From Oligoflexales bacterium (GTDB taxonomy: Bacteria; Bdellovibrionota_B; Oligoflexia; Oligoflexales; Bog-1112): a stretch of DNA of 10,239 nucleotides. Position 1 is the stretch's first letter. Every line of letters starts with the position of its first letter. Shown here piece by piece: positions 1 to 10,239 of the stretch. Below the pieces are notes generated by a model that ran no database searches, had not been told where the DNA came from, and was given only the letters and a program-made list of their open reading frames with translations. Both the position numbers and the translations under genes were made by a program. The stretch spans positions 1-10,239 of the forward strand of contig JBGCDR010000122.1 of assembly GCA_045105515.1 (NCBI GenBank), written 5' to 3'.

Positions 1-35
1 TCATACCTTTGCTCATAAGTGAGATTGGCAGACAT
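1..35 (-). CDS. N-terminal fragment of a probable IS30-family transposase (partial at window edge)
   Basis: AAAGGGG RBS (41-47), 5 nt spacer, ATG at 35, translating MSANLTYEQRY. This matches the LTxE(Q/E)RY start of the IS30 N-terminal HTH. Only 11 codons are visible. Confidence 0.65.
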   Translation of the reverse strand, partial: MSANLTYEQRY

Positions 36-137
36 AAATACCCCTTTCTTGCAAGCAGATTAGCCTCATAGACTAAACTAAATCCGCCTTCCGAAGCGAT
101 GGAATTTTTTCTTCTGCACTTAATCTAGCAATCCGCC
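1..137 (-). mobile_element. Left end of a probable IS30-family insertion sequence (continues beyond window start)
   Basis: The minus strand from 137 reads GGCGGATTGCTAGATTAAGTGCAGAAG (plus strand TGCACTTAATCTAGCAATCCGCC, 115-137), resembling IS30-family terminal inverted repeats. About 100 nt further in are an RBS and an ORF start with an IS30 transposase-like N-terminus. The partner IR is not in the window. Confidence 0.7.
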
Positions 138-466
138 AAAGGAAATAACATCTTGGGACTCCACATTTTTAAGAAGAAAAAGAACCAAAGGGATGAATAT
201 AAATTTTTTAAAAACTTTTCTATAGATTTATATGAAGAAAAGATTGTTAGAGCTCCTTTACAAGCTAGGATTAGGGTCAATAAACCATATTTATTTTTTA
301 TTTCAGATTGTTTATCGACTTGATCTACCCATATTGGGTTTGTCGGCTAGTTTAAAAAAATTGATTCATTATTTAATTCCAGATACTTAACATTACCATT
401 AAAGTGCATAAATGCTGCTCCCGAAATATCCCTCGAGAAATATGACTTTAGAGGAAGAATATAAAT

Positions 467-2752
467 ATGAGCATGTGTCCCAGCAGAATTTCTCTTTCGA
501 TATATTTAACTATCGTTCCATTTTTAAGCATATTGATAAGCTGTGATAGCGACGAGGGTAAGCTAGGTCAATCATCTGACCTAATCAGAGAGGCTGATAG
601 CAGAGCAGCAGTATTGAGTAATGAAGAAAGTTATGCCGATAAAAATAGCGATACTACAGAAGATGAAATTATTACCATTGAGATTGATACCGAGATTAGC
701 AAAATCATTGAAAAGCTACCTATTGAAGAAGAGATAGAAAATAAGAATCCAGATATAGATTTTGGCTCTGAAGAACTTGTAGATGATTTCACCAAGTTTT
801 TTCGTATCATAAATACCCACTGCACCTACTGCCATGGAGGGATCAATTCTCTTCATCCTGAAATCTTCGATTTTAGTAGCTTAGATAACTTGCAAAAATG
901 GATAAGTGCTGAACAAATCACACCATCTAAAGCATTGAGTTCTCCAGTTTTTAACCGCTTGGTATTTGCTCCTGAGGAGCTTGAAACTCTAAGAAATATG
1001 CCATATAGTACAAACGGCTTGATTTCTATGAAAAAGGAACAGGCTGACTTCATCTATAAGTTCATCAATTCCTTAAGCCCTCCTCCAGAAGATGAAATTT
1101 TTGAACCGGTAAATAATTTTGCAGCTGCAAATCAAATCAAATCATTAATTAACGGTCAAGCATTATCAGAAGAAGATGTGTCTGATATTATGCAAGATCA
1201 AGATCAAACCCTCAGCAACAATACAATCAAAAAAATGATGACAAGGTGGCTTGAGCAGGAAAGTGGGCGAAAATGGCTTGGGGATTTTTTGCTTGTAACC
1301 CTCGATCAAAATGGAGTCTATGACACAAATAGAAGGGATCGCTACTTAGGTGCACATATTTCACCGTATAACAACAAAAGTGGTAGTTTCGGCAGGGATT
1401 TTGAGCAAGCAGTATTTGAATCTTCGCGCAAAACCTACTTAAAAATTATAGATGAAAACTTACCTTTTAATCGAATTATTGACACCTGTGAAATTTACGT
1501 TAGCACCACCTTACTTGTTGCTATGCTATATGCAGGGGATCCAACAAAGAACCCAAATTCCGCAAGCAAGGAATTTAGAGATTTCATCACTGGAAATACA
1601 AATCCAGCCGATAATTTCGATTGGAAGCTGATTACCGCTGAACAAGGCAGCCAAACGATTGCTTGGAATGATATCGAATCTATCCGAGCTATCAATGATG
1701 GAGAAAGTATAAAATTCACAACTTCTCGATGTGGATTTTTTAATACCCTTGGCTACCATTTCAAAAATCGTACTAACAGTGACAACCGCTTTCGAATTAC
1801 AGTCAGTCAAGCTTTTATTTCAGGCCTCAACAGGCAATTTGTAGCCTCTGATATGACTCCTACTTTCACTGAAGCAGGCGTAGACAAAGATCATGCATCG
1901 CAGGCTGCATGTTACTCTTGTCACAAAAACCTAGATCCCATGACCTATATTTTTGCCTCGGAAATGCGACCTAATTACCGACCTAGCAATGTTAGTGATT
2001 TTGTTGATAAGAAAGGCTTTGCTTTTAGAGGCGTACAAAAAACGGCAAATTCTATTTCCGAATTTGCTGACGTTCTAGCAAGTCACCCTGAATTTGCCAA
2101 AGGATGGACTGAACGGTGCTATGAATATGCAGGTCACTCACTTAGCGAAGATTCTCCAGGGTTTAAGCAGTCCCTAGAAACTTTTAAGGCAAGCAATTTA
2201 AACTTCAAGGAACTACTTTTCCACTGCCTTGGATCGCTTAAAGTCATAGGTCAAGGAAAAAGTGAGAAGAAATGGGAGCCAAAAACCCTTAGAAAAAGCC
2301 AATTTTGTCAAGCTTTAACTATCCGTGTTAATAGCTTAAGGGATTCTCTTAATTTGGGTCCTAATCTTCCTAATCTGTGTCAGGATAGAGATATTGAGAC
2401 TATCGCAAACAGTTTACCTGAGACCATAATTTCTAGAGGAATCAAAGGCTATAGCGTACCCAAACATGACACTGAAATAACCTATCGATTTAGAGAACGA
2501 GTTTGTGAAGAAGCAGCCTACGAACATTTTGACTCTATTCCAAAAGAACTATCGGTGAGCGACATCGTCGTAAAAATGCCAGAAACGATAATGAGTATCC
2601 CTGCTCAGCACCCTTTATCACAAAAAATTGAGGCAATTTTGCTCAACACTTTAGAAGAAAGTAGTGAGGTAAATAACAGTGAAATCGAAGGATTACAGGA
2701 ATCTTTTATCGCAGCATGTTTAGCTGGATTAAATGGGACAGGAATATGGTAG
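467..2752 (+). CDS. Cytochrome c lipoprotein with two CxxCH motifs (planctomycete cytochrome c-like domain plus DUF1549/DUF1553/DUF1588-like region)
   Basis: 761 aa ORF with GAGGA RBS upstream. Hydrophobic leader and lipobox-like ILIS-C26 followed by an acidic linker. CTYCH (821-835) with a downstream RL...MP axial Met-type motif; H-x5-CYSCH-KNLDP (1910-1924). Lies directly upstream of a DUF1501-like gene, the usual arrangement. Confidence 0.8.
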   Translation: MSMCPSRISLSIYLTIVPFLSILISCDSDEGKLGQSSDLIREADSRAAVLSNEESYADKNSDTTEDEIITIEIDTEISKIIEKLPIEEEIENKNPDIDFGSEELVDDFTKFFRIINTHCTYCHGGINSLHPEIFDFSSLDNLQKWISAEQITPSKALSSPVFNRLVFAPEELETLRNMPYSTNGLISMKKEQADFIYKFINSLSPPPEDEIFEPVNNFAAANQIKSLINGQALSEEDVSDIMQDQDQTLSNNTIKKMMTRWLEQESGRKWLGDFLLVTLDQNGVYDTNRRDRYLGAHISPYNNKSGSFGRDFEQAVFESSRKTYLKIIDENLPFNRIIDTCEIYVSTTLLVAMLYAGDPTKNPNSASKEFRDFITGNTNPADNFDWKLITAEQGSQTIAWNDIESIRAINDGESIKFTTSRCGFFNTLGYHFKNRTNSDNRFRITVSQAFISGLNRQFVASDMTPTFTEAGVDKDHASQAACYSCHKNLDPMTYIFASEMRPNYRPSNVSDFVDKKGFAFRGVQKTANSISEFADVLASHPEFAKGWTERCYEYAGHSLSEDSPGFKQSLETFKASNLNFKELLFHCLGSLKVIGQGKSEKKWEPKTLRKSQFCQALTIRVNSLRDSLNLGPNLPNLCQDRDIETIANSLPETIISRGIKGYSVPKHDTEITYRFRERVCEEAAYEHFDSIPKELSVSDIVVKMPETIMSIPAQHPLSQKIEAILLNTLEESSEVNNSEIEGLQESFIAACLAGLNGTGIW

Positions 2753-4023
2753 CAACAAAAAATAATCGCAGAGATTTTTTATCTAAGGTCCTATTTGGAT
2801 ACGGAGGACTTGGACTAAAGTCATTATTAATTGGTCTTCCACCAGGGTTTATAATGAGCAGAGTTATAGGACAAGAAGCACGAACCAGATTGATCTACTG
2901 CTTTCAAAAGCAAGGTGATCCAATTGGCTGTAACTTTGGTCCAGCTTACGATATTCCAGAATGCGTCCATCCTGCTGCTTTTGAAACTCCTGTTTTAACA
3001 AGTTTTGGAGATAACAGCATACAATGTGCGGCACCTTGGGCCAGCCTTCCTCAGGACTTCCGCGCTAAATCCCATATGATTTTTCATCACACTGGAGCTG
3101 CTGCCCATCCAGAATCCAATGTTGTTCTAGCTGGATTTTCAAGCCTTAAAGGTCAAGGGGGAGTTGGAAGCGAAATGTTGCCAAGCATCCATAAAGACTT
3201 GTTTGGAGACGGGCTCTCGATCATTCACCTTACCAACAAATTTTCTCTTACAGAGGGAGGATCAAGTCCTATTCCTCAGATCGCTCCCAACAGTCTAAAA
3301 AGCGCATTCTCTCTTAGCGACACCCAACTCTTGAATATTCGCGACAAAGCTTTAAATGAGCTCTGGAAAGAATGTAAAGCCTCTGGAAACACAGCACAAT
3401 GGGAATACTGCGATAAAATGATCATGACATCATCTCAATCCAGAGAACTTGCAAAGAATCTTTCAGGTTTACTAGAGAACGTAGAAACTCTGGATACCTT
3501 CACTGCAGCAGTGATTGTCATGGCTGCAGGCGCAAGCTCTGTAGCCACCATCCATATTCCATTTGGCGGTGACAATCATGACGACCAAGGACTCACCAAA
3601 GAAGCTAATCAACTTAGCTCAGGATGCCAACAACTTGAAAGTCTATGGAATCTCATGAAACAATACAACATACACACTACAACGACATTTGCGATGCAAG
3701 GAGTTTTTGGCAGAACTTTTGGTCTAAAAAATGGTGCTAAGAACGGTCGGGATCACCATGGAGGAGCAAGCACTACCCTTATTCAAGGGCCAAATGTAAA
3801 GGGAGGCTTATCCGGTGGATTAATTCCTATTAGTGGTAAAAAAGCTGCAGAAACTACTGGTATTAATTCCAAGACTGGGCAAGCAACTAATTCTGGAGAC
3901 ATTCCAAAAAATGAAACTTTAGCAGCAGCCTGCAGAACAGTGCTAAAAGTGTGTGGAGCCTCAGAATCCGAATTAGAAGAGCGAGTGAGGGGAGGAAAAC
4001 TGATCGAATCAGCTATCTTGTAA
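2746..4023 (+). CDS. Tat-exported DUF1501-like protein (putative metalloenzyme)
   Basis: The start is more likely ATG 2746 than 2716: it overlaps the upstream stop (ATGGTAG) and puts the twin-arginine motif NRRDFL near the N-terminus. Conserved-looking motifs HHTGAAAHPE, GGDNHDD, FGRT, GRDHH and GPNVKGG are typical of DUF1501/DUF1552-type proteins. Confidence 0.8.
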   Translation: MVATKNNRRDFLSKVLFGYGGLGLKSLLIGLPPGFIMSRVIGQEARTRLIYCFQKQGDPIGCNFGPAYDIPECVHPAAFETPVLTSFGDNSIQCAAPWASLPQDFRAKSHMIFHHTGAAAHPESNVVLAGFSSLKGQGGVGSEMLPSIHKDLFGDGLSIIHLTNKFSLTEGGSSPIPQIAPNSLKSAFSLSDTQLLNIRDKALNELWKECKASGNTAQWEYCDKMIMTSSQSRELAKNLSGLLENVETLDTFTAAVIVMAAGASSVATIHIPFGGDNHDDQGLTKEANQLSSGCQQLESLWNLMKQYNIHTTTTFAMQGVFGRTFGLKNGAKNGRDHHGGASTTLIQGPNVKGGLSGGLIPISGKKAAETTGINSKTGQATNSGDIPKNETLAAACRTVLKVCGASESELEERVRGGKLIESAIL

Positions 4024-4110
4024 AAAGCAAGTTAGTTGATAGAAAAAAAACAGCAGTGAAAAATTATACCTATGTATTGTAGTACCTATTTTGATGAAAA
4101 AAATCGTCGG

Positions 4111-4731
4111 TTATGGAAATAGATATTTGGTAAAATACTCGGAGAAACCAGTATCCCAGTTAAACTCCTCAGTACTATCTTCAAGGCTCCAAACTCTTGT
4201 AATTTCTTGGCATATACCATCACTATCTATTTTGGTTTCACCAACACTTATTTGTAAATCATTTGATCCACATTCAAAAGAATATAGAGTCACCTTAAAT
4301 TGTTTGCTATTTTGCCCAAAAAAATTAGTTGATTTAAAAATATCAGGATATTTAATAGAGACAGTAATATGGGAGTTGTATTGAGTTTGTTGATATTCCA
4401 CACTAAAATTGTTACTTAGGTCTTCATCAATAAGTTCTTGAAAACTTGCAAAAGCTCCTCTTTCAAGGTGATCTATATAAGCTACTGTTTTACTATCATC
4501 CTTTGTAAAACCATGTAACTCAGCAAAATCAATGATTCGAAGCATTTCATTGGCTATTTTTCCCACATTGCTAGAGCGATTAACAAAATTATTGAGTCTT
4601 CTCTTAACTTCTTTAAGAGCGACCAATGCTTGTCCATAAGACGGATTATTATCGTTAGCAAAGCTAGCACGACAAACTTGAAGGGACGGAAACACAAGAA
4701 TAAAGCTCAAGGCTAGTAAAGCTGATTTCAT
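4111..4731 (-). CDS. Hypothetical secreted protein
   Basis: 206 aa ORF with strong AGGAG RBS (4739-4743) 7 nt before ATG and a Sec-type signal peptide MKSALLALSFILVFPSLQVCRA. No recognisable family. Confidence 0.8.
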   Translation of the reverse strand: MKSALLALSFILVFPSLQVCRASFANDNNPSYGQALVALKEVKRRLNNFVNRSSNVGKIANEMLRIIDFAELHGFTKDDSKTVAYIDHLERGAFASFQELIDEDLSNNFSVEYQQTQYNSHITVSIKYPDIFKSTNFFGQNSKQFKVTLYSFECGSNDLQISVGETKIDSDGICQEITRVWSLEDSTEEFNWDTGFSEYFTKYLFP

Positions 4732-4952
4732 AACGTTACTCCTACAAGAATTAATCTATACCTGTGTTTGGTAACATGACAAGTTCATTCCGTAAATAAC
4801 TAGCTTGCAAAAAATAAATCAGCAGGTTTTTTGTAGACCGTGAAAAACTTTCGAATTCTTGACGAACGATAACTCTTAGTGTTAATTGATGAATCCGTGA
4901 ATTGGACTGTGGGCTAAAACCTATGTTTCTCTCGATAAATAGGACAAAAATT

Positions 4953-6524
4953 ATGAAAATAAACCTTGCAATTTTAATTTTCTTCTTTACATCTCATTCA
5001 ATTGCTAGAGATTTATCTCTCCCCTCAACTGTACTGATAGATCCAAATAAAGAGCTAACAGCCCAGTATTTAGCTCGATCTATCGCTGCAAACGGGGTGA
5101 GTCCTATTCGATTTAACCAGCAAGTAGATCCTGACATGCTCCACACAAGCCACGAACTTGACCCAGGTAAAACCCAAAATCAGAAACAAAGCGGTCGTTG
5201 CTGGATTTTTGCGGGAGAAAAAATTCTTGGAGAGGTAATTCGAGACGCATGGGATAAAGAGCTTACCTTTTCTCACAATTACATTGCATTTTGGGATAAG
5301 ATGGAAAGGGCTAATTATATTCTCGAAAAACTCTTCGAATATCGTCAGCTAAAACCTAATGATCCAAAAATTCAAAGCCTTATCAATCATATGGGAGATG
5401 GTGGCGAATGGGAACTTTTCAAAAATATCGTCAAAAAATATGGTGTTGTGCCAGTAAGTGTAATGCCCGAAACTAGCTTCAGTGGAAACTCGAGAGCCTA
5501 CACCCAAACCTTATCACAAGTAATCGCCCGCAGTGCAGGATTAATCTTACAACTTAATACTCAATATGGAAAAGAAACAATCGAGCAAGAATTTATAAAA
5601 ATTAAATCAAAATCCCTTCGGATCATCCGCACAATACTGGTAAATTATTTGGGTACACCTCCTCAGTTTTACTCAAAACACCAGGGTAAATTTTATTGGC
5701 AACAACCAAAAGACAAGAAATCAAAAACCTCTGATGAGAAAACTCGAACAGAGGGTGAGGAAAATATAAAAAAAGAGACAAAAGAAAATAAAAATGAAGT
5801 TAAAAATGAAGGCAAAGTAGAGAATATAGTTGAAAAATTAGAGCTTATAAGTCCAATTGACTTACTTGATCGTGCTGGCATCAAGCTCGATGACTATGTT
5901 CATATTTCGCACCTACCTTACCATAAAGATGACAAAGGCAAACTAATTGAAGGCTACGAACTTATTGTAAAAGATGGTGGAAATGTAATCGATATGGAAC
6001 CGCTTAAAACTCTTTTAGTAAATATGTCAGAAATTAAGACCTCAATCCGTAAATCTATTAAGGACGGTTCCGGTGTGCAAATAGGATGTGAGATGAAGCA
6101 CCTTGATATTGATAAATCTCTCCTTTCTATAAGTAACGATGAAATGAGCACGATTTTTGAAATAGATACTCTTGACCATTTAGATAAGGCAGATCGCATG
6201 CTTGCTGGTGAAGACAAAGTAGCCCATGGCATGTACCTTATTGGATGTGATGATGCTGACAAAACCCTAGTGAACCGCGAAAATTCTGAGGCAAAGGATA
6301 TAGAGTTTTATGGGCCACTTTGGAAAGTTCTAAACTCTTGGGGCAATGGAAGAGCAGAGAAAATATTCATGACCGATCAATGGTTTGAGGAGTATGCTCA
6401 CAGCTTTATCTTAAAGAAGAAATACCTATCGCAATCAATCTTGGATTCTTTAAGTTCGGGATTAAGTATTGAGACTGACTACAATGATCCATTTTCAAAA
6501 ATTACAGCAAAAAGGACTAACTAA
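4953..6524 (+). CDS. pepC: C1B-family cysteine peptidase (aminopeptidase C/bleomycin hydrolase-like) with signal peptide
   Basis: Catalytic motifs NQKQSGRCWIFA (Cys codon 5199-5201), AHGMYLIG (His 6225-6227) and WKVLNSWG (Asn 6333-6335). Family motifs FWDKMERAN, DGGEW and KYGVVP..VMPET. Start placed at ATG 4953 (AGGA upstream; MKINLAILIFFFTSHSIA leader) rather than TTG 4902. Confidence 0.9.
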   Translation: MKINLAILIFFFTSHSIARDLSLPSTVLIDPNKELTAQYLARSIAANGVSPIRFNQQVDPDMLHTSHELDPGKTQNQKQSGRCWIFAGEKILGEVIRDAWDKELTFSHNYIAFWDKMERANYILEKLFEYRQLKPNDPKIQSLINHMGDGGEWELFKNIVKKYGVVPVSVMPETSFSGNSRAYTQTLSQVIARSAGLILQLNTQYGKETIEQEFIKIKSKSLRIIRTILVNYLGTPPQFYSKHQGKFYWQQPKDKKSKTSDEKTRTEGEENIKKETKENKNEVKNEGKVENIVEKLELISPIDLLDRAGIKLDDYVHISHLPYHKDDKGKLIEGYELIVKDGGNVIDMEPLKTLLVNMSEIKTSIRKSIKDGSGVQIGCEMKHLDIDKSLLSISNDEMSTIFEIDTLDHLDKADRMLAGEDKVAHGMYLIGCDDADKTLVNRENSEAKDIEFYGPLWKVLNSWGNGRAEKIFMTDQWFEEYAHSFILKKKYLSQSILDSLSSGLSIETDYNDPFSKITAKRTN

Positions 6525-6565
6525 AATTGCCAATCTTGTGGCGAACTTATTTTAGAAAAGCATAT

Positions 6566-6649
6566 GAGATCCCTCGACTTCGCTCGGAATGACCGAGACT
6601 TTCGCTCGGAATGACCTCAGTGTCATCTCGACTGCAATGGAGAGATCTC
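6566..6649. repeat. Cluster of REP-like palindromic repeats (GTCAT/ATGAC-ended units) between convergent genes
   Basis: Unit 6566-6593 (GAGATCCCTCGACTTCGCTCGGAATGAC); exact 16-bp direct repeat TTCGCTCGGAATGACC at 6579-6594 and 6601-6616; inverted unit 6622-6649 whose reverse complement matches the first unit at 20/28 positions. Confidence 0.8.
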
Positions 6650-6683
6650 CTTATAAGCACCTAAAACGCTGGGATGAACAAGT

Positions 6684-7724
6684 TCAACAAAATTTGGGCC
6701 TATGAGAAGCAATAAAAACTGCTTTATCACCTTGCCGGATATGGAAGCTTGATTCAGGGAGAAAGTAATTGTTTTGACCACGCCTTACTCCTGCTAAGAC
6801 CGCTCCAGGTCCCTCAAAACCTTCTCTAACCTCACCATAGCTTTGGTATTTTCTAGGTACCTCTATAACGTAAAACTGCTTTCCTGTTGCATTGCTAGTT
6901 AATTCACTGACGATATCAAGTGTCCCAGGATCCTGCATTTCCTGAGCGATCATTTGGCTAGCCATGGCACTCACACAAACCACGCTATCACAACCAGCAC
7001 GCGTAAATAAATCTACATGCTCTGGATTGAGACATTCAACAATTGCTCTAAGTTGCTTAGCTACACTTTTAAGAGTGATCATCACTGCAAGGTTTTTTAA
7101 ATCTGAATGAAGTGGGTCTTGTAAATCTGCTAGAATAATTGCACTCTTGGCAGAACAAAAATTAGCCCTTTCTAAAACCGTCAACTCTCCTGGGTTGCCC
7201 TTAACAAACAAAACTTTCTGCTTAGCTAAACCTGGAGGAATTTCATCAAGATTTTGATCTATAATCACTATTTCAGAGCTTGAAGTAGTTCGGTCTTTGC
7301 GAATCTCGTTTACCAATCTAGCAACACTCGCTTCAGAACTGAAGCGAACGATAAGAACATGATTTTTTAACTTCATCAGCATCCGTCCCTTACGCCTGCT
7401 CATCCTTGATTCAAAAACAAAAGAAGCAAGCAATGATAGAAAATATCCAATTAATGCAACTCCTACAATCAAGGTTGGATAACCTATCAAAAATCGGCCC
7501 TCAATCGTAACAGGTGCTAAGTCCCCATACCCTACTGTTGTCATCGTCACTAAAGACCACCAGGCAGCATCATACCAAGTGAGGCCTGGCTGGTGACTTT
7601 TTTCGAACAGGTAAAAACCCACTGATGAGTAGAGAAATATTAACAAAAAGAATAAAGATGCCATACCCAGATTGCTTTTGAATCCAGACATCAATTTACG
7701 TAAAAATGATATAAAAATAACCAT
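6684..7724 (-). CDS. Two-TM potassium channel with C-terminal RCK (TrkA-N-like) domain, MthK-like
   Basis: TM helix, pore helix DAAWWSLVTM, selectivity filter TTVGYGD (7521-7541), second TM helix, then RCK-type motifs NHVLIV, FVKGNP, LERAN, AIILAD and AGCDSVV. Confidence 0.92.
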   Translation of the reverse strand: MVIFISFLRKLMSGFKSNLGMASLFFLLIFLYSSVGFYLFEKSHQPGLTWYDAAWWSLVTMTTVGYGDLAPVTIEGRFLIGYPTLIVGVALIGYFLSLLASFVFESRMSRRKGRMLMKLKNHVLIVRFSSEASVARLVNEIRKDRTTSSSEIVIIDQNLDEIPPGLAKQKVLFVKGNPGELTVLERANFCSAKSAIILADLQDPLHSDLKNLAVMITLKSVAKQLRAIVECLNPEHVDLFTRAGCDSVVCVSAMASQMIAQEMQDPGTLDIVSELTSNATGKQFYVIEVPRKYQSYGEVREGFEGPGAVLAGVRRGQNNYFLPESSFHIRQGDKAVFIASHRPKFC

Positions 7725-7835
7725 GGTTCTAAACAGATGAAGCCCACTGAGCCTTGCAAGAATCAGCTAAAGATGGGCATGTTAACGATATATTTTACAC
7801 ACTAAGTCTATCCCATTATTAGAATTCAGCACATA

Positions 7836-8636
7836 CTAAAAATCATCCAATGATTCCATAATCATACTTTGAGAATTTTCATAGCGGCTACAGAAGATCT
7901 GTTTAGAAAGGTAAACATGATTATCCACGAAGGCTAAATGCTTTAAGCACCTGCCTTTGTAACTTAGATTTCGAGACACTTCCTCAAAGGAACATTCAAG
8001 CTCTTCAGAGCTAATTATTTCTATACAGCCACTTTGATATACAAACTTCACATAATGCTTAGACTGATCAGCAACCCTGGGCCTAACTATATATACTCCT
8101 TCTATATATTCGGCAGGTATCTCATGGATAAGTACAACCTCATAATCATCGCGCAAGCCCATAAGCTTTTCAATATCAAAAGCCTCACGCGTTTTAGGAG
8201 GGATTCTTATTTTAAACACCACTCCATTTTCTTTATCGGTATATAAAAACTTAGATTCTCCATTAGCATCCAATTTTCTTTCACTTTTAGATGCTGAATT
8301 TGGAAAATCATAAGATGTGGAGATAGTTTCTGGTGTTGACCTGACGCTAGGACAAACACCCGCATGCATCTTGGGGTCAAAGCGAGTTATGTCCAATAAA
8401 TTTTGCTTCACCAATCTTCTATTTTTTACAAACCAAAAAACTGCGGGAGAAAACAAGCCATTTGTTAAGATATCGAAAATAAATCTCTTCTTTTCTCTCA
8501 CATTGTCACAACTAGTCCTCAATCCTCGGTAAAGAACCACATCAGATACCACAGCATTTGCATACTTTTCAGCTAATACTCGCCGGTACTCATTTGCATG
8601 AGCCTTCATTCTGGTTATTTCATACCCTACAAGCAT
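7836..8636 (-). CDS. Putative R-S-E class ADP-ribosyltransferase (enterotoxin A/pertussis S1/scabin-like fold)
   Basis: 266 aa ORF with ordered motifs VLYRG (R37), ILTNGL, H91, ISTS (S106-T-S108), GVVFKI and DYEVV (E166)...IPAEYIEG. The start codon is uncertain because there is no clear RBS. Confidence 0.65.
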   Translation of the reverse strand: MLVGYEITRMKAHANEYRRVLAEKYANAVVSDVVLYRGLRTSCDNVREKKRFIFDILTNGLFSPAVFWFVKNRRLVKQNLLDITRFDPKMHAGVCPSVRSTPETISTSYDFPNSASKSERKLDANGESKFLYTDKENGVVFKIRIPPKTREAFDIEKLMGLRDDYEVVLIHEIPAEYIEGVYIVRPRVADQSKHYVKFVYQSGCIEIISSEELECSFEEVSRNLSYKGRCLKHLAFVDNHVYLSKQIFCSRYENSQSMIMESLDDF

Positions 8637-8844
8637 AAAAACGAGGATGTTGCAGTAATCAGCTTACTCGTCTAAGTTGCCGAGCAAGTAGCTAATATTT
8701 TGTTATCAATTTTTTGGTTTAAAACTATTGTAACATTTGAGAGCTATTTAAAGCCATTATCTGGCTCGGCAAGCCCCATTTAAAAATAAATTACAAAAAA
8801 TAATATGAACATACCCAAGCAAGAGAAGGCATGATGGGGGCAGC

Positions 8845-9378
8845 TTATTTAAGCCGCAAGGTCATGATAGCATCGTTGATGCTATGTCCATTAACCCGGA
8901 AAAGATCCTGCACAATACCGACTTTGCCGAACCCCATTTTTTCATAGAGTTTAATTGCTGGCAAATTGTGTTCGAAAACATAAAGCTCAACCCACTCAAT
9001 AATTGCCTGTGTTTTAAGCCAAGCGAAAGCCTCGCTTATCAACTTCTCGCCAAAGCCCCTACCGCGAACTGCAGGCTCAATTCCCATTCCAAGGCGACAA
9101 CGATGCCTACTGCTACGATAGGGGGAGCCCTTTAAGTAAAGATGACCACTAATTCCATCTTCAGCGTCCTTAAGAACCCAAAACCTCGCCCATGAGACCT
9201 CGCCAACTTCTCGCATCATCCCTGACTCAATATCAGCCTTTAGCTGGGAAACCAAAGGCAGGTCTTTAAGCTCTAAAATACTATATTCAATGCCTTGATG
9301 CCCTGAAAGCCGTGAATTGCGGTCTATATGCATTGCCAGTATTCTGCTATCTACGACAACTAAAGGTCTGACTTCCAT
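8845..9378 (-). CDS. GNAT family N-acetyltransferase
   Basis: AGGAG RBS (9386-9390). Acetyl-CoA binding motif LGMGIEPAVRGRGFGEKLI and motif B ELYVFEHNLPAIKLYEKMGF, of the RimJ/RimL/YhhY-like type. Confidence 0.92.
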   Translation of the reverse strand: MEVRPLVVVDSRILAMHIDRNSRLSGHQGIEYSILELKDLPLVSQLKADIESGMMREVGEVSWARFWVLKDAEDGISGHLYLKGSPYRSSRHRCRLGMGIEPAVRGRGFGEKLISEAFAWLKTQAIIEWVELYVFEHNLPAIKLYEKMGFGKVGIVQDLFRVNGHSINDAIMTLRLK

Positions 9379-9420
9379 CTAACGGCTCCTTTCTATCTAG
9401 CACTTATCAGCAAGCGATCA

Positions 9421-10239
9421 CTAGGCAGAAATAATTGCTCCTATAAAAACACAAGAGGATAATCCACTTAAGAAACTGAGTGCCTGCCACCTTAAAAATA
9501 TATTTCCTCTTTGATGATAATAACTATTTGCTGATTCAATTGCCTGATCACGATAGCTTACTTCTTTAATGATATTCTGCTGCAACAAGCCTGGAAATAA
9601 ATTGCACTCGATTAATAAAGGCCCTTGCTCAGTAATTGCTACATCCCATGCTATTAAAAAAAACTCATGAGCAATAGACAAATGGGCTTCTTTACATAAC
9701 TGAGTTGCTTCTTGATAAAAAGGAACTTTAAACCCAGACAAATCAATCTTTTCATCAAAAACCAAACCCTCATCGGCAGAGCCTATATAATAGGCGCCTT
9801 TGAGTATAAGACCCCTTTGAGATAGGATTAAGTTGTATCCTCCAGTCGATGTATTAGAATTTATACTTCCCTCTTGACCAGTTTTGAGCTCTCCTGCCCA
9901 AAATAAATCTATGCTGCCACATTTTTTCTTAATCGTAACCAATCTTACTGAGGCAAGGCATGGAGATATTTTATCTAATTCACGATGATTGTTAATGATA
10001 GGTTGGACAAGATAATCATCCGATAGCTTAGAAAAATTATCTAACCAAGCTTGACTCACCGTAACTATGTAATGACCATCACCATTGCCACCCCATTTCA
10101 GGGCTGATTCAAATAAGATTTTTTCCAATTTTTCATTAAATAGGTCAGAAAAATTCTAAGCCGCAATACCAAAAGTGACTAGATAAAAAAAATATAGGAA
10201 GAAAAAACTTAAAAAAAATGGCTCACTTTTATTAAAAAA
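9421..10239 (-). pseudogene. Sugar-transfer-associated ATP-grasp family gene, probably disrupted or 5'-truncated (intact ORF part 9421-10128)
   Basis: ATP-grasp motifs YLVQPIINNH, SVRLVT, SNTSTGG and IAWDVAITEQGPLLIECNLFPG. The ORF starts at a TTG without an RBS, in what looks like mid-domain. The same frame has a TAG at 10156-10158 and is open again to the window end. The family call is firmer than the pseudogene call. Confidence 0.55.

Follow-up and report, generated by a model that had tools for sequence, protein, structure and literature searches.

A very small family of probable R-S-E ADP-ribosyltransferases with a D-x-E loop in an Oligoflexales bacterium

Introduction

Here, we report on one gene of an Oligoflexales bacterium (GTDB lineage Bacteria; Bdellovibrionota_B; Oligoflexia; Oligoflexales; Bog-1112), encoded on the minus strand of a 10,239-nucleotide stretch of DNA (GenBank assembly GCA_045105515.1, contig JBGCDR010000122.1, positions 1 to 10,239), which we call the window. 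A preliminary description, made from the letters of the window, had named the product, a 266-amino-acid (aa) protein termed P0001 below, an orphan toxin-type ADP-ribosyltransferase (ART) with an atypical D-x-E catalytic loop. Comparisons with homologues and with more distant relatives make it very likely that P0001 is an ART. The best explanation, to which we give a probability of roughly 0.8, is a genuine, probably active mono-ART of the R-S-E clade (cholera/pertussis/scabin type), founding a very small and fast-diverged family. This family would descend from, or share an ancestor with, ARTs of the same uncultured bacterial family that carry a signal peptide or a lipobox.

Results

The open reading frame (ORF) of P0001 runs from an ATG at 8636 to a TAG at 7836-7838 (Table 1), and upstream of M1 the frame stays open for 9 codons only (275 aa in total). 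A database entry for the same protein (P0002, 257 aa) begins at M10. The segment GYEI[AT]R[IM]K, which precedes M10, is conserved in all four sequences of the family, so the true start is probably M1 or a nearby or earlier codon rather than the M10 of P0002.

Five motifs had been read from the sequence in a fixed order, and all of them are present exactly, with their codons confirmed: L35-Y36-R37-G38 (R37 encoded by cga), H91-A92-G93, I105-S106-T107-S108, G138-VVFKI-143, and the catalytic-loop segment DDYEVVLIHEIPAEYIEG, which contains E166 (gag, 8139-8141) and is spelled D163-D164-Y165-E166-VVLIHEIPAEYIEG. A composite pattern ([LVI][YF]R[GA], S[TS][TS] and [DEQ]xE[VI][VIT][LI], separated by gaps of 40-90 residues) matched the P0001 frame alone when applied to the genome's 7,024 stop-to-stop frames of ≥100 aa, and a looser version matched 2 of the 7,024. 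The R / S-T-S / [DEQ]-x-E arrangement exceeds chance, as judged with a pattern that was chosen post hoc. The other loose match, a 546-aa ORF (L010 313-1953, minus strand, which is G000:C449:24812-26452), had no Pfam match at E ≤ 0.01 and is probably a chance hit.

Close homologues are few. Of 264 candidates from a word-indexed search, four proteins had E ≤ 0.001, namely P0001 and three homologues (83, 73, and 60% identity), two of which, P0003 and P0005, are encoded on contigs of 144 and 27 kb. All four motifs are unchanged in the three homologues, and R37, H91, S-T-S, and E166 are kept in 4/4 members down to 60% identity. Longer fused forms are ruled out at the sensitivity of an exhaustive profile search (1.84 billion cluster representatives, no length limit), since it returned the protein's own cluster only. 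The gene is present in 1 of the 95 genomes of the order, which is the window's own, and was found neither in the genome of the same genus nor elsewhere among the other 94. No relatives of P0001 turned up in plasmid and phage collections (tblastn) or in pattern scans of genome, metagenome, and viral contigs, and PHROGs gave a single weak row (phrog_18717, a family of unknown function; E 0.034). For such direct searches the word "orphan" is apt; it does not extend to the bacterial family, in which relatives exist.

These relatives connect P0001 with known ARTs. A six-frame scan of 131 genomes of the phylum with the Pfam Scabin-like model found five ORFs in four genomes, two in the family of the window genome; the same scan with Pertussis_S1 found none in the 131 genomes and was silent in every control genome too, which makes it a weak blank. 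BLASTP of P0001 against P0130, P0131, and a 597-aa ORF (L013; the short ORFs L014 and L015 were left out) gave E 1e-5 for P0130 (29% identity over 136 aa, residues 56-186) and E 6e-4 for P0131 (residues 35-187). Both proteins exceed the Pfam Scabin-like cut-off (32.1 and 32.3 bits versus 27), and P0131 additionally exceeds that of Enterotoxin_a (27 bits versus 21). Profile-profile comparison (hhalign) of the four-member family with P0130 plus P0131 gave a probability of 91.8% and E 7.4e-7 over 133 columns (residues 30-189). In a local rerun, the real score was 48.9 and that of the reversed query 15.4, and all 159 shuffles scored lower than the real comparison (maximum of 21.7 in 100 column shuffles and of 28.2 in 59 ten-column block shuffles). 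When the P0130/P0131 profile was run against the phylum, 3 of the 131 genomes, all of the same family, proved to encode further members.

In an alignment of nine sequences, made up of the four family members and five relatives (P0130 and P0131 of genome G017, the L018 ORF of G013, and the L019 and L013 ORFs of G015), the invariant columns are V29, R37, G38, G60, A65, H91, S106, T107, S108, F130, E166, I178, and G180. This set includes the Arg, His, S-T-S, and Glu by which the cholera-toxin group is recognised. In the R-S-E clade, the Arg follows an aromatic residue at the end of strand beta-1, S-T-[ST] comes after a hydrophobic residue, and the catalytic Glu opens the strand behind the ARTT-like loop; the counterparts in P0001 are Y36-R37-G38, I105-S106-T107-S108, and E166, with R37, S106-T107-S108, and E166 invariant in 9/9. 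The conservation of R37, S106, and E166, on which the preliminary description had made its case depend, thus extends over three homologues and five ART relatives, and its ART assignment is borne out by the pairwise and profile-profile matches to Scabin-like/Enterotoxin_a proteins together with the placing of R37, H91, S-T-S, and E166 in invariant columns.

The relatives share with P0001 the catalytic core (24-29% identity), including Y/F-R-G, G-L-x-S/T-P-A-V-F, the His, [IV]-S-T-S, GVVFKI, the catalytic Glu, I-x-G-x-Y, and a C-terminal F-x-C (EFQC or AFHC in the relatives). Their N-termini consist of a signal peptide or lipobox (e.g., ...FLSGC... and ...FISGC...) and, after it, ~150-230 aa of low-complexity linker, whereas P0001 has no counterpart of the linker and begins with a 26-aa helix in place of all three. 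These 26 residues are charged, hold no hydrophobic signal-like stretch (by eye), and are peculiar to the four-member family. P0001 further differs by additional segments of ~7 aa (after Y-R-G), ~13 aa, and ~50 aa, by an acidic tail, by D-Y-E where the relatives have E-K-E or E-E-E (residue 164 is D in 4/4 family members and E in 5/5 relatives), and by falling below the Pfam cut-offs that they exceed. The C-terminal region of ~80 aa that had been described as extra is indeed extra sequence in part: it resolves into an insertion of ~50 aa (residues ~190-239), whose structural matches in VIA are weak and intein-like (Z no higher than 4.1), and a tail that the relatives have in part. The relatives' genes are also solitary among housekeeping genes (ThiI and Lgt at one locus; Ndk, PgpA, and a biotin carrier at another).

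A third lipoprotein paralogue in G017 (402 aa, L022 1345-2550, minus strand, on contig C70) has YQG for YRG and lacks the catalytic Glu, and is probably an inactive ART-like protein. Activity loss therefore occurs in the group, and P0001 might likewise have lost catalysis and be retained as an ART-like binding or scaffolding domain. The retention of R37, H91, S-T-S, and E166 throughout the P0001 family speaks against such decay, which we regard as highly improbable.

The D-x-E loop recurs in a second, more distant group. One member of PF21641 (NarE), encoded in a genome from within the order, was expanded to 11 and then to 100 metagenome proteins; this NarE-like set matches NarE (PDB 2kxi) at E 1e-28. 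Its members are small ARTs (~150 aa) and make up a large D-x-E branch that is uncharacterised. Comparison of the P0001 family with NarE-like profiles by hhalign gave E 0.011, 0.044, and 0.018 (plus a second collinear local match at E 0.042), and a single comparison by hmmsearch gave E 0.0086; against Pfam NarE itself, P0001 gave no match at the gathering cut-off of 27 bits. The alignments set R37 on R8 and D164-x-E166 on D118-x-E120, and R8 and E120 are invariant in the 100 proteins. When family and NarE-like sequences were merged with MAFFT, an S-T-T at 116-118 was placed on the motif; this placement was rejected, as the closer relatives fix the motif at 106-108. Two residues before the catalytic Glu, the 100 NarE-like proteins have D (99) or N (1), in a loop that reads P-E-D-x-E-V-I-L, and the NarE of Neisseria meningitidis has E-K-E. 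Because the set was recruited from D-x-E seeds, 99/100 describes that branch and not all of PF21641.

On these alignments, the D-x-E of P0001 is a derived change relative to its E-x-E relatives and is a recurrent variant, not a unique oddity. "Atypical" therefore holds with respect to the nearest relatives and fails with respect to the NarE-like branch, where D-x-E is the rule. Nor does the loop prove the unusual substrate at which it had been taken to hint, since 99 of the 100 NarE-like ARTs have the same variant. A survey of Legionella ARTs tabulates ExE, QxE, xxE, and ExD variants (PMC12522546). In the ART-focused literature retrieved by a limited search on ExE/QxE/DxE terms, "DxE" is not named (a further retrieved paper, PMC3482391, contains the term once), and, as far as that search goes, an effect of D-x-E on acceptor choice is not established. 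Literature on ADP-ribosyltransferase plus Bdellovibrio had nothing on such an enzyme in its titles and the beginnings of its abstracts.

Language-model neighbours of whole P0001 and of residues 25-192 were ART clusters with scores of 0.92-0.95 (by the tool's own statement, 0.95 is reached by ~1 in 100 shuffled proteins). They comprise Lart1, NarE, pertussis S1/scabin-like, ArtA, and DUF7587, and 9 of the 10 best named clusters share a clan. These neighbours and the weak collinear similarity to NarE-like proteins are independent leads to the ARTs.

A number of results weigh against the assignment. Pfam, NCBIfam, and PADLOC gave no match for P0001, nor did PDB sequences searched with phmmer and a profile. 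P0001 and its three homologues were unmatched by Scabin-like, Enterotoxin_a, and Pertussis_S1 even at E ≤ 10, the Pfam gathering cut-offs of PF22596, PF01375, and PF02917 were not reached by P0001, and the six-frame genome scans with Scabin-like and Pertussis_S1 missed the ORF. The two-sequence P0130/P0131 profile failed to retrieve P0001 from its own genome in a six-frame HMMER search (E ≤ 0.01), so P0001 has diverged far; the third Scabin-like relative, the 597-aa L013 ORF, gave no significant BLASTP alignment (E 0.85). D164 stands where R-S-E enzymes canonically have E or Q two residues ahead of the catalytic Glu, and the similarity to the NarE-like profiles is marginal, with 2 of 60 column shuffles equalling the real hhalign score. 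An AlphaFold2 (AF2) model built from the four family sequences alone had a mean predicted local distance difference test (pLDDT) score of 53 and a predicted template modelling score of 0.53, with the C-terminal module as its only reasonably confident part. With the alignment merged with the 100 NarE-like ARTs, mean pLDDT was 67, in a model that is circular because of those sequences and serves as a consistency check only; residues 65-120, H91 and S-T-S included, had pLDDT <50. Neither model gave a Foldseek match at E ≤ 0.001. This comparison, proposed in the preliminary description as a check, thus returned nothing significant, and its top row for the low-confidence four-sequence model was pertussis S1 (E 0.28). 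In VIA (48,161 chains), Z did not exceed 4.7 for the four-sequence model, under the tool's caution line of 8, and the merged, circular model, with TreX on top at Z 6.4 and ART-type entries in its first fifteen rows, also stayed below it. As to delivery, the genome, which is 91% complete, yielded neither TssC nor DotH/IcmK, and the DotH/IcmK search was silent in all controls, so it says little.

Nine of the top ten VIA rows for the four-sequence model are of the ART fold, namely Tpt1 (twice), MTX, TreX, pierisin-1, EcPltA, pertussis S1 (twice), and scabin; Tpt1 is itself a member of the ART superfamily. The tenth, an intein, was matched to the C-terminal module. We take the structural evidence as supportive of a predicted ART fold, not as proof of it. 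That P0001 is not an ART, its motifs being chance look-alikes in an unrelated orphan, would agree with the lack of a direct match in curated libraries, the poor models, and the Foldseek result. It appears extremely improbable in view of hhalign (E 7.4e-7, 0/159 shuffles) and BLASTP (E 1e-5), of invariant columns that fall on ART catalytic residues, and of an enrichment in ARTs by two unrelated methods (language-model neighbours and VIA).

Table 1. Features of the P0001 gene and other genes in the window
Feature	Position	Strand	Remarks
Whole ORF, 266 aa plus stop, P0001	7836-8636	-	three homologues at 60-83% identity
N-terminal helix, residues 1-26	8559-8636	-	helix 2-25/26 in both AF2 models
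Predicted ART catalytic core, residues 30-189	8070-8549	-	hhalign 30-189; BLASTP 56-186 and 35-187
R37 codon, Arg of L-Y-R-G (NAD+ binding in R-S-E ARTs)	8526-8528	-	invariant 9/9
H91 codon (H-A-G), 15 residues before S-T-S	8364-8366	-	invariant 9/9
S106-T107-S108	8313-8321	-	invariant 9/9; aligns to P0130 VSTSYD (BLASTP, hhalign)
Family-specific insertion of ~13 aa after STSYD, F111-D123	8268-8306	-	gap in 5/5 lipoprotein relatives; pLDDT <50 in both models
G138-VVFKI-143 strand	8208-8225	-	identical in P0130 and P0131; strand 138-143/144 in both models
D164-Y165-E166 loop (D-x-E), E166 the predicted catalytic Glu	8139-8147	-	E166 invariant 9/9
Insertion of ~50 aa, residues ~190-239, small beta/alpha module	7920-8069	-	missing from P0005 and lipoprotein relatives; pLDDT 68-92
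Conserved C-terminal tail, residues 240-266, VYLSK..F-C..., acidic end ESLDDF	7839-7919	-	homologue and relative alignments; F-x-C aligns with relatives
AT-rich upstream spacer, 208 bp, to GNAT gene	8637-8844	-	may hold the gene's own promoter region
K+ channel with RCK domains	6684-7724	-	downstream neighbour; 111-bp spacer
GNAT	8845-9378	-	upstream neighbour
Sugar-transfer-type ATP-grasp (PF14397)	9421-10128	-	upstream neighbour
C1-like peptidase (PF03051, E 4.9e-61)	4902-6524	+	hydrophobic N-terminus
ORF of 206 aa	4111-4731	-	signal-peptide-like N-terminus; no Pfam family

The gene lies between same-strand neighbours of other kinds (Table 1). Neither flanking spacer (208 and 111 bp) holds an ORF of at least 30 aa, and promoter-like and terminator-like sites near the ORF did not exceed shuffle expectation. 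Among the neighbouring genes there is no B subunit, defence-type domain, sensor, antitoxin, immunity gene, or hydrolase. Together with the search for fused forms, this confirms the absences listed in the preliminary description: those of a signal peptide (judged by eye), a B subunit, an Rhs carrier, and a neighbouring gene for immunity or for an ADP-ribosylhydrolase. The genome of the same genus (G012) has no orthologues of the K+ channel or the GNAT gene, with partial matches of 32-39% identity only, so the region is variable or accessory, or else the 10-kb contig is loosely binned (the bin is 91% complete, with a contamination estimate of 4.8%). One ADP_ribosyl_GH gene is present elsewhere in the genome (contig C98, E 3.5e-58), unlinked to the ORF; no Macro domain was found in the genome.

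Two rival roles were considered. P0001 might be an endogenous regulatory ART that modifies one of the cell's own cytoplasmic proteins, by a logic like that of DraT, and is reversed by the unlinked ADP-ribosylhydrolase. The lack of a signal peptide (by eye) and of an adjacent immunity gene would suit such an enzyme, as would the ADP_ribosyl_GH gene on contig C98. That family, however, is common (7 of 14 control genomes), its gene here is unlinked, the relatives are exported lipoproteins, and a core regulator would hardly be absent, as this ORF is, from the genome of its own genus and 94 others in the order; we hold a regulatory role to be unlikely. Patchy, strain-level distribution, a variable region, and a cytoplasmic ART without an immunity gene could instead point to phage defence by abortive infection, with P0001 ADP-ribosylating components of the phage or the host once infection occurs. 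Yet no defence-protein model of PADLOC-DB 2.0 matches P0001 at E ≤ 10, no defence, sensor, or antitoxin gene is adjacent, and phage and plasmid collections hold no relatives; an unregulated active toxin in the cytoplasm would, moreover, need a control element, and none was seen. This makes a defence role very unlikely.

Some further observations concern the rest of the window. GNAT and ATP-grasp lie in tandem (8845-10128, minus strand) and may form a small modification operon, with no demonstrated link to the ART. A Lys/Glu-rich insertion of ~60 aa divides the domain of the C1-like peptidase. The contig ends (1-131 and 10099-10239) have a word depth of ~1,160-2,270, versus ~12.8 elsewhere, in the probable source run, and short contigs connect position ~137 with ~10098; the 10-kb contig thus seems to be bounded by a high-copy repeat. 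A repeat search within the window found no terminal repeat. Two marine-metagenome runs yielded, as small shares, a 151-nucleotide contig over 8512-8660 (6 differences) and a 248-nucleotide contig over 8656-8899, which carry no conclusion on habitat or synteny. No RNA dataset was listed as containing this stretch.

Discussion

By analogy with characterised R-S-E enzymes, R37 and S106-T107-S108, aided by H91, would hold NAD+ in the cleft of a split beta-sheet, and E166 would stabilise the oxocarbenium-like transition state as nicotinamide departs, after which ADP-ribose would be passed to an acceptor. D164 would occupy the place where E or Q normally helps to position that acceptor; acceptor choice, or the balance between transferase and NAD+ glycohydrolase (NADase) activity, may therefore differ from that of E-x-E relatives. 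The enzyme might even be mainly an NADase, an ART fold that depletes NAD+ with little transfer, since D164 shortens the acceptor-positioning residue. The family-wide D, against E in the closest relatives, would fit this reading, and in ExoS-like E-x-E toxins an E-to-D change of the first Glu reportedly cuts transfer more than NADase activity. The prevalence of D-x-E among the NarE-like ARTs points, however, to a stable, selected configuration and not a crippled one. NarE, with its E-K-E, is reported to perform both reactions (PMC4440719). We consider a dedicated NADase rather unlikely.

Relative to its lipoprotein kin, the P0001 family would have lost the export signal and linker and gained the N-terminal helix, two short inserts, and the ~50-aa module. 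It would stand alone as NarE does, with no adjacent B subunit, carrier, immunity gene, or hydrolase. Our best guess for its role, a tentative one, is an effector acting on a target that the producer lacks (in prey or in a eukaryotic host) and released by a non-Sec route; we favour a target absent from the producer because an immunity gene is lacking and the relatives are exported proteins. The missing export signal, the E-to-D change, and the module may also mark a functional shift, to a new class of acceptor (nucleic acid, small molecule, or a residue other than Arg) or to a new delivery route, used by predatory or host-associated Oligoflexales on prey or a eukaryotic host without an immunity partner. 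We think such a shift doubtful; if it were real, the D-x-E shared with the NarE-like branch would constitute a specificity class of its own, the third after E-x-E and Q-x-E.

Among known systems, scabin of Streptomyces scabies, pierisin, and the A subunits of cholera, heat-labile, and pertussis toxins (PF22596, PF01375, and PF02917) share with P0001 the R-S-E signature and the His before S-T-S. The bridging relatives score to these families, which also supply some of the top structural rows for both models. In contrast to this group, which has E-x-E or Q-x-E, P0001 has D-x-E and lacks a direct hidden Markov model match, a signal peptide, an A2 linker, and B-subunit genes. AB-type enterotoxins at large (cholera, heat-labile, pertussis, ArtAB, and PltAB) combine a Sec signal with an adjacent B gene, and P0001 has neither (signal judged by eye). 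ART effectors of the polymorphic, Rhs, and type VI secretion systems (e.g., TreX/TriX and Tre1/Tri1) are fused to a carrier and followed by an immunity gene, neither of which was found for P0001. Known anti-phage systems, as modelled in PADLOC-DB 2.0, resemble it neither in sequence nor in having a defence gene adjacent.

NarE of N. meningitidis is described (PMC4440719) as having no leader peptide and no B subunit, as still leaving the cytoplasm, and as having an essential Arg. NarE and NarE-like proteins resemble P0001 in standing alone and in the motifs L-Y-R-G and D-x-E-V-[VI]-L, the second of which precedes a conserved Pro; P0001 is ~110 aa longer, the similarity is marginal, and NarE itself has E-K-E. 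Lart1 (Lpg0181) of Legionella pneumophila is an R-S-E effector (R37, 86-SxS, and 135-ExE) that was found only by profile methods (PMC7949102). Its family (PF26393) is the nearest language-model cluster to whole P0001 (score 0.95, 174 of 256 features shared). Both proteins have Arg at position 37 and a non-ART C-terminal region after the ART part. Lart1 differs in its ExE, its coiled-coil C-terminus, and its status as a Dot/Icm substrate, whereas P0001 has D-x-E and comes from a genome in which no DotH marker was found.

The P0001 family is very probably a new, small, sequence-orphan addition to the R-S-E ART toxins, a well-known enzyme kind. D-x-E is the rule in the large uncharacterised environmental NarE-like branch and would have arisen again in the P0001 family. 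No curated model detects P0001, and its link to the clade runs only through lineage-specific intermediates, which shows how ART effectors of little-studied predatory or host-associated lineages escape annotation.

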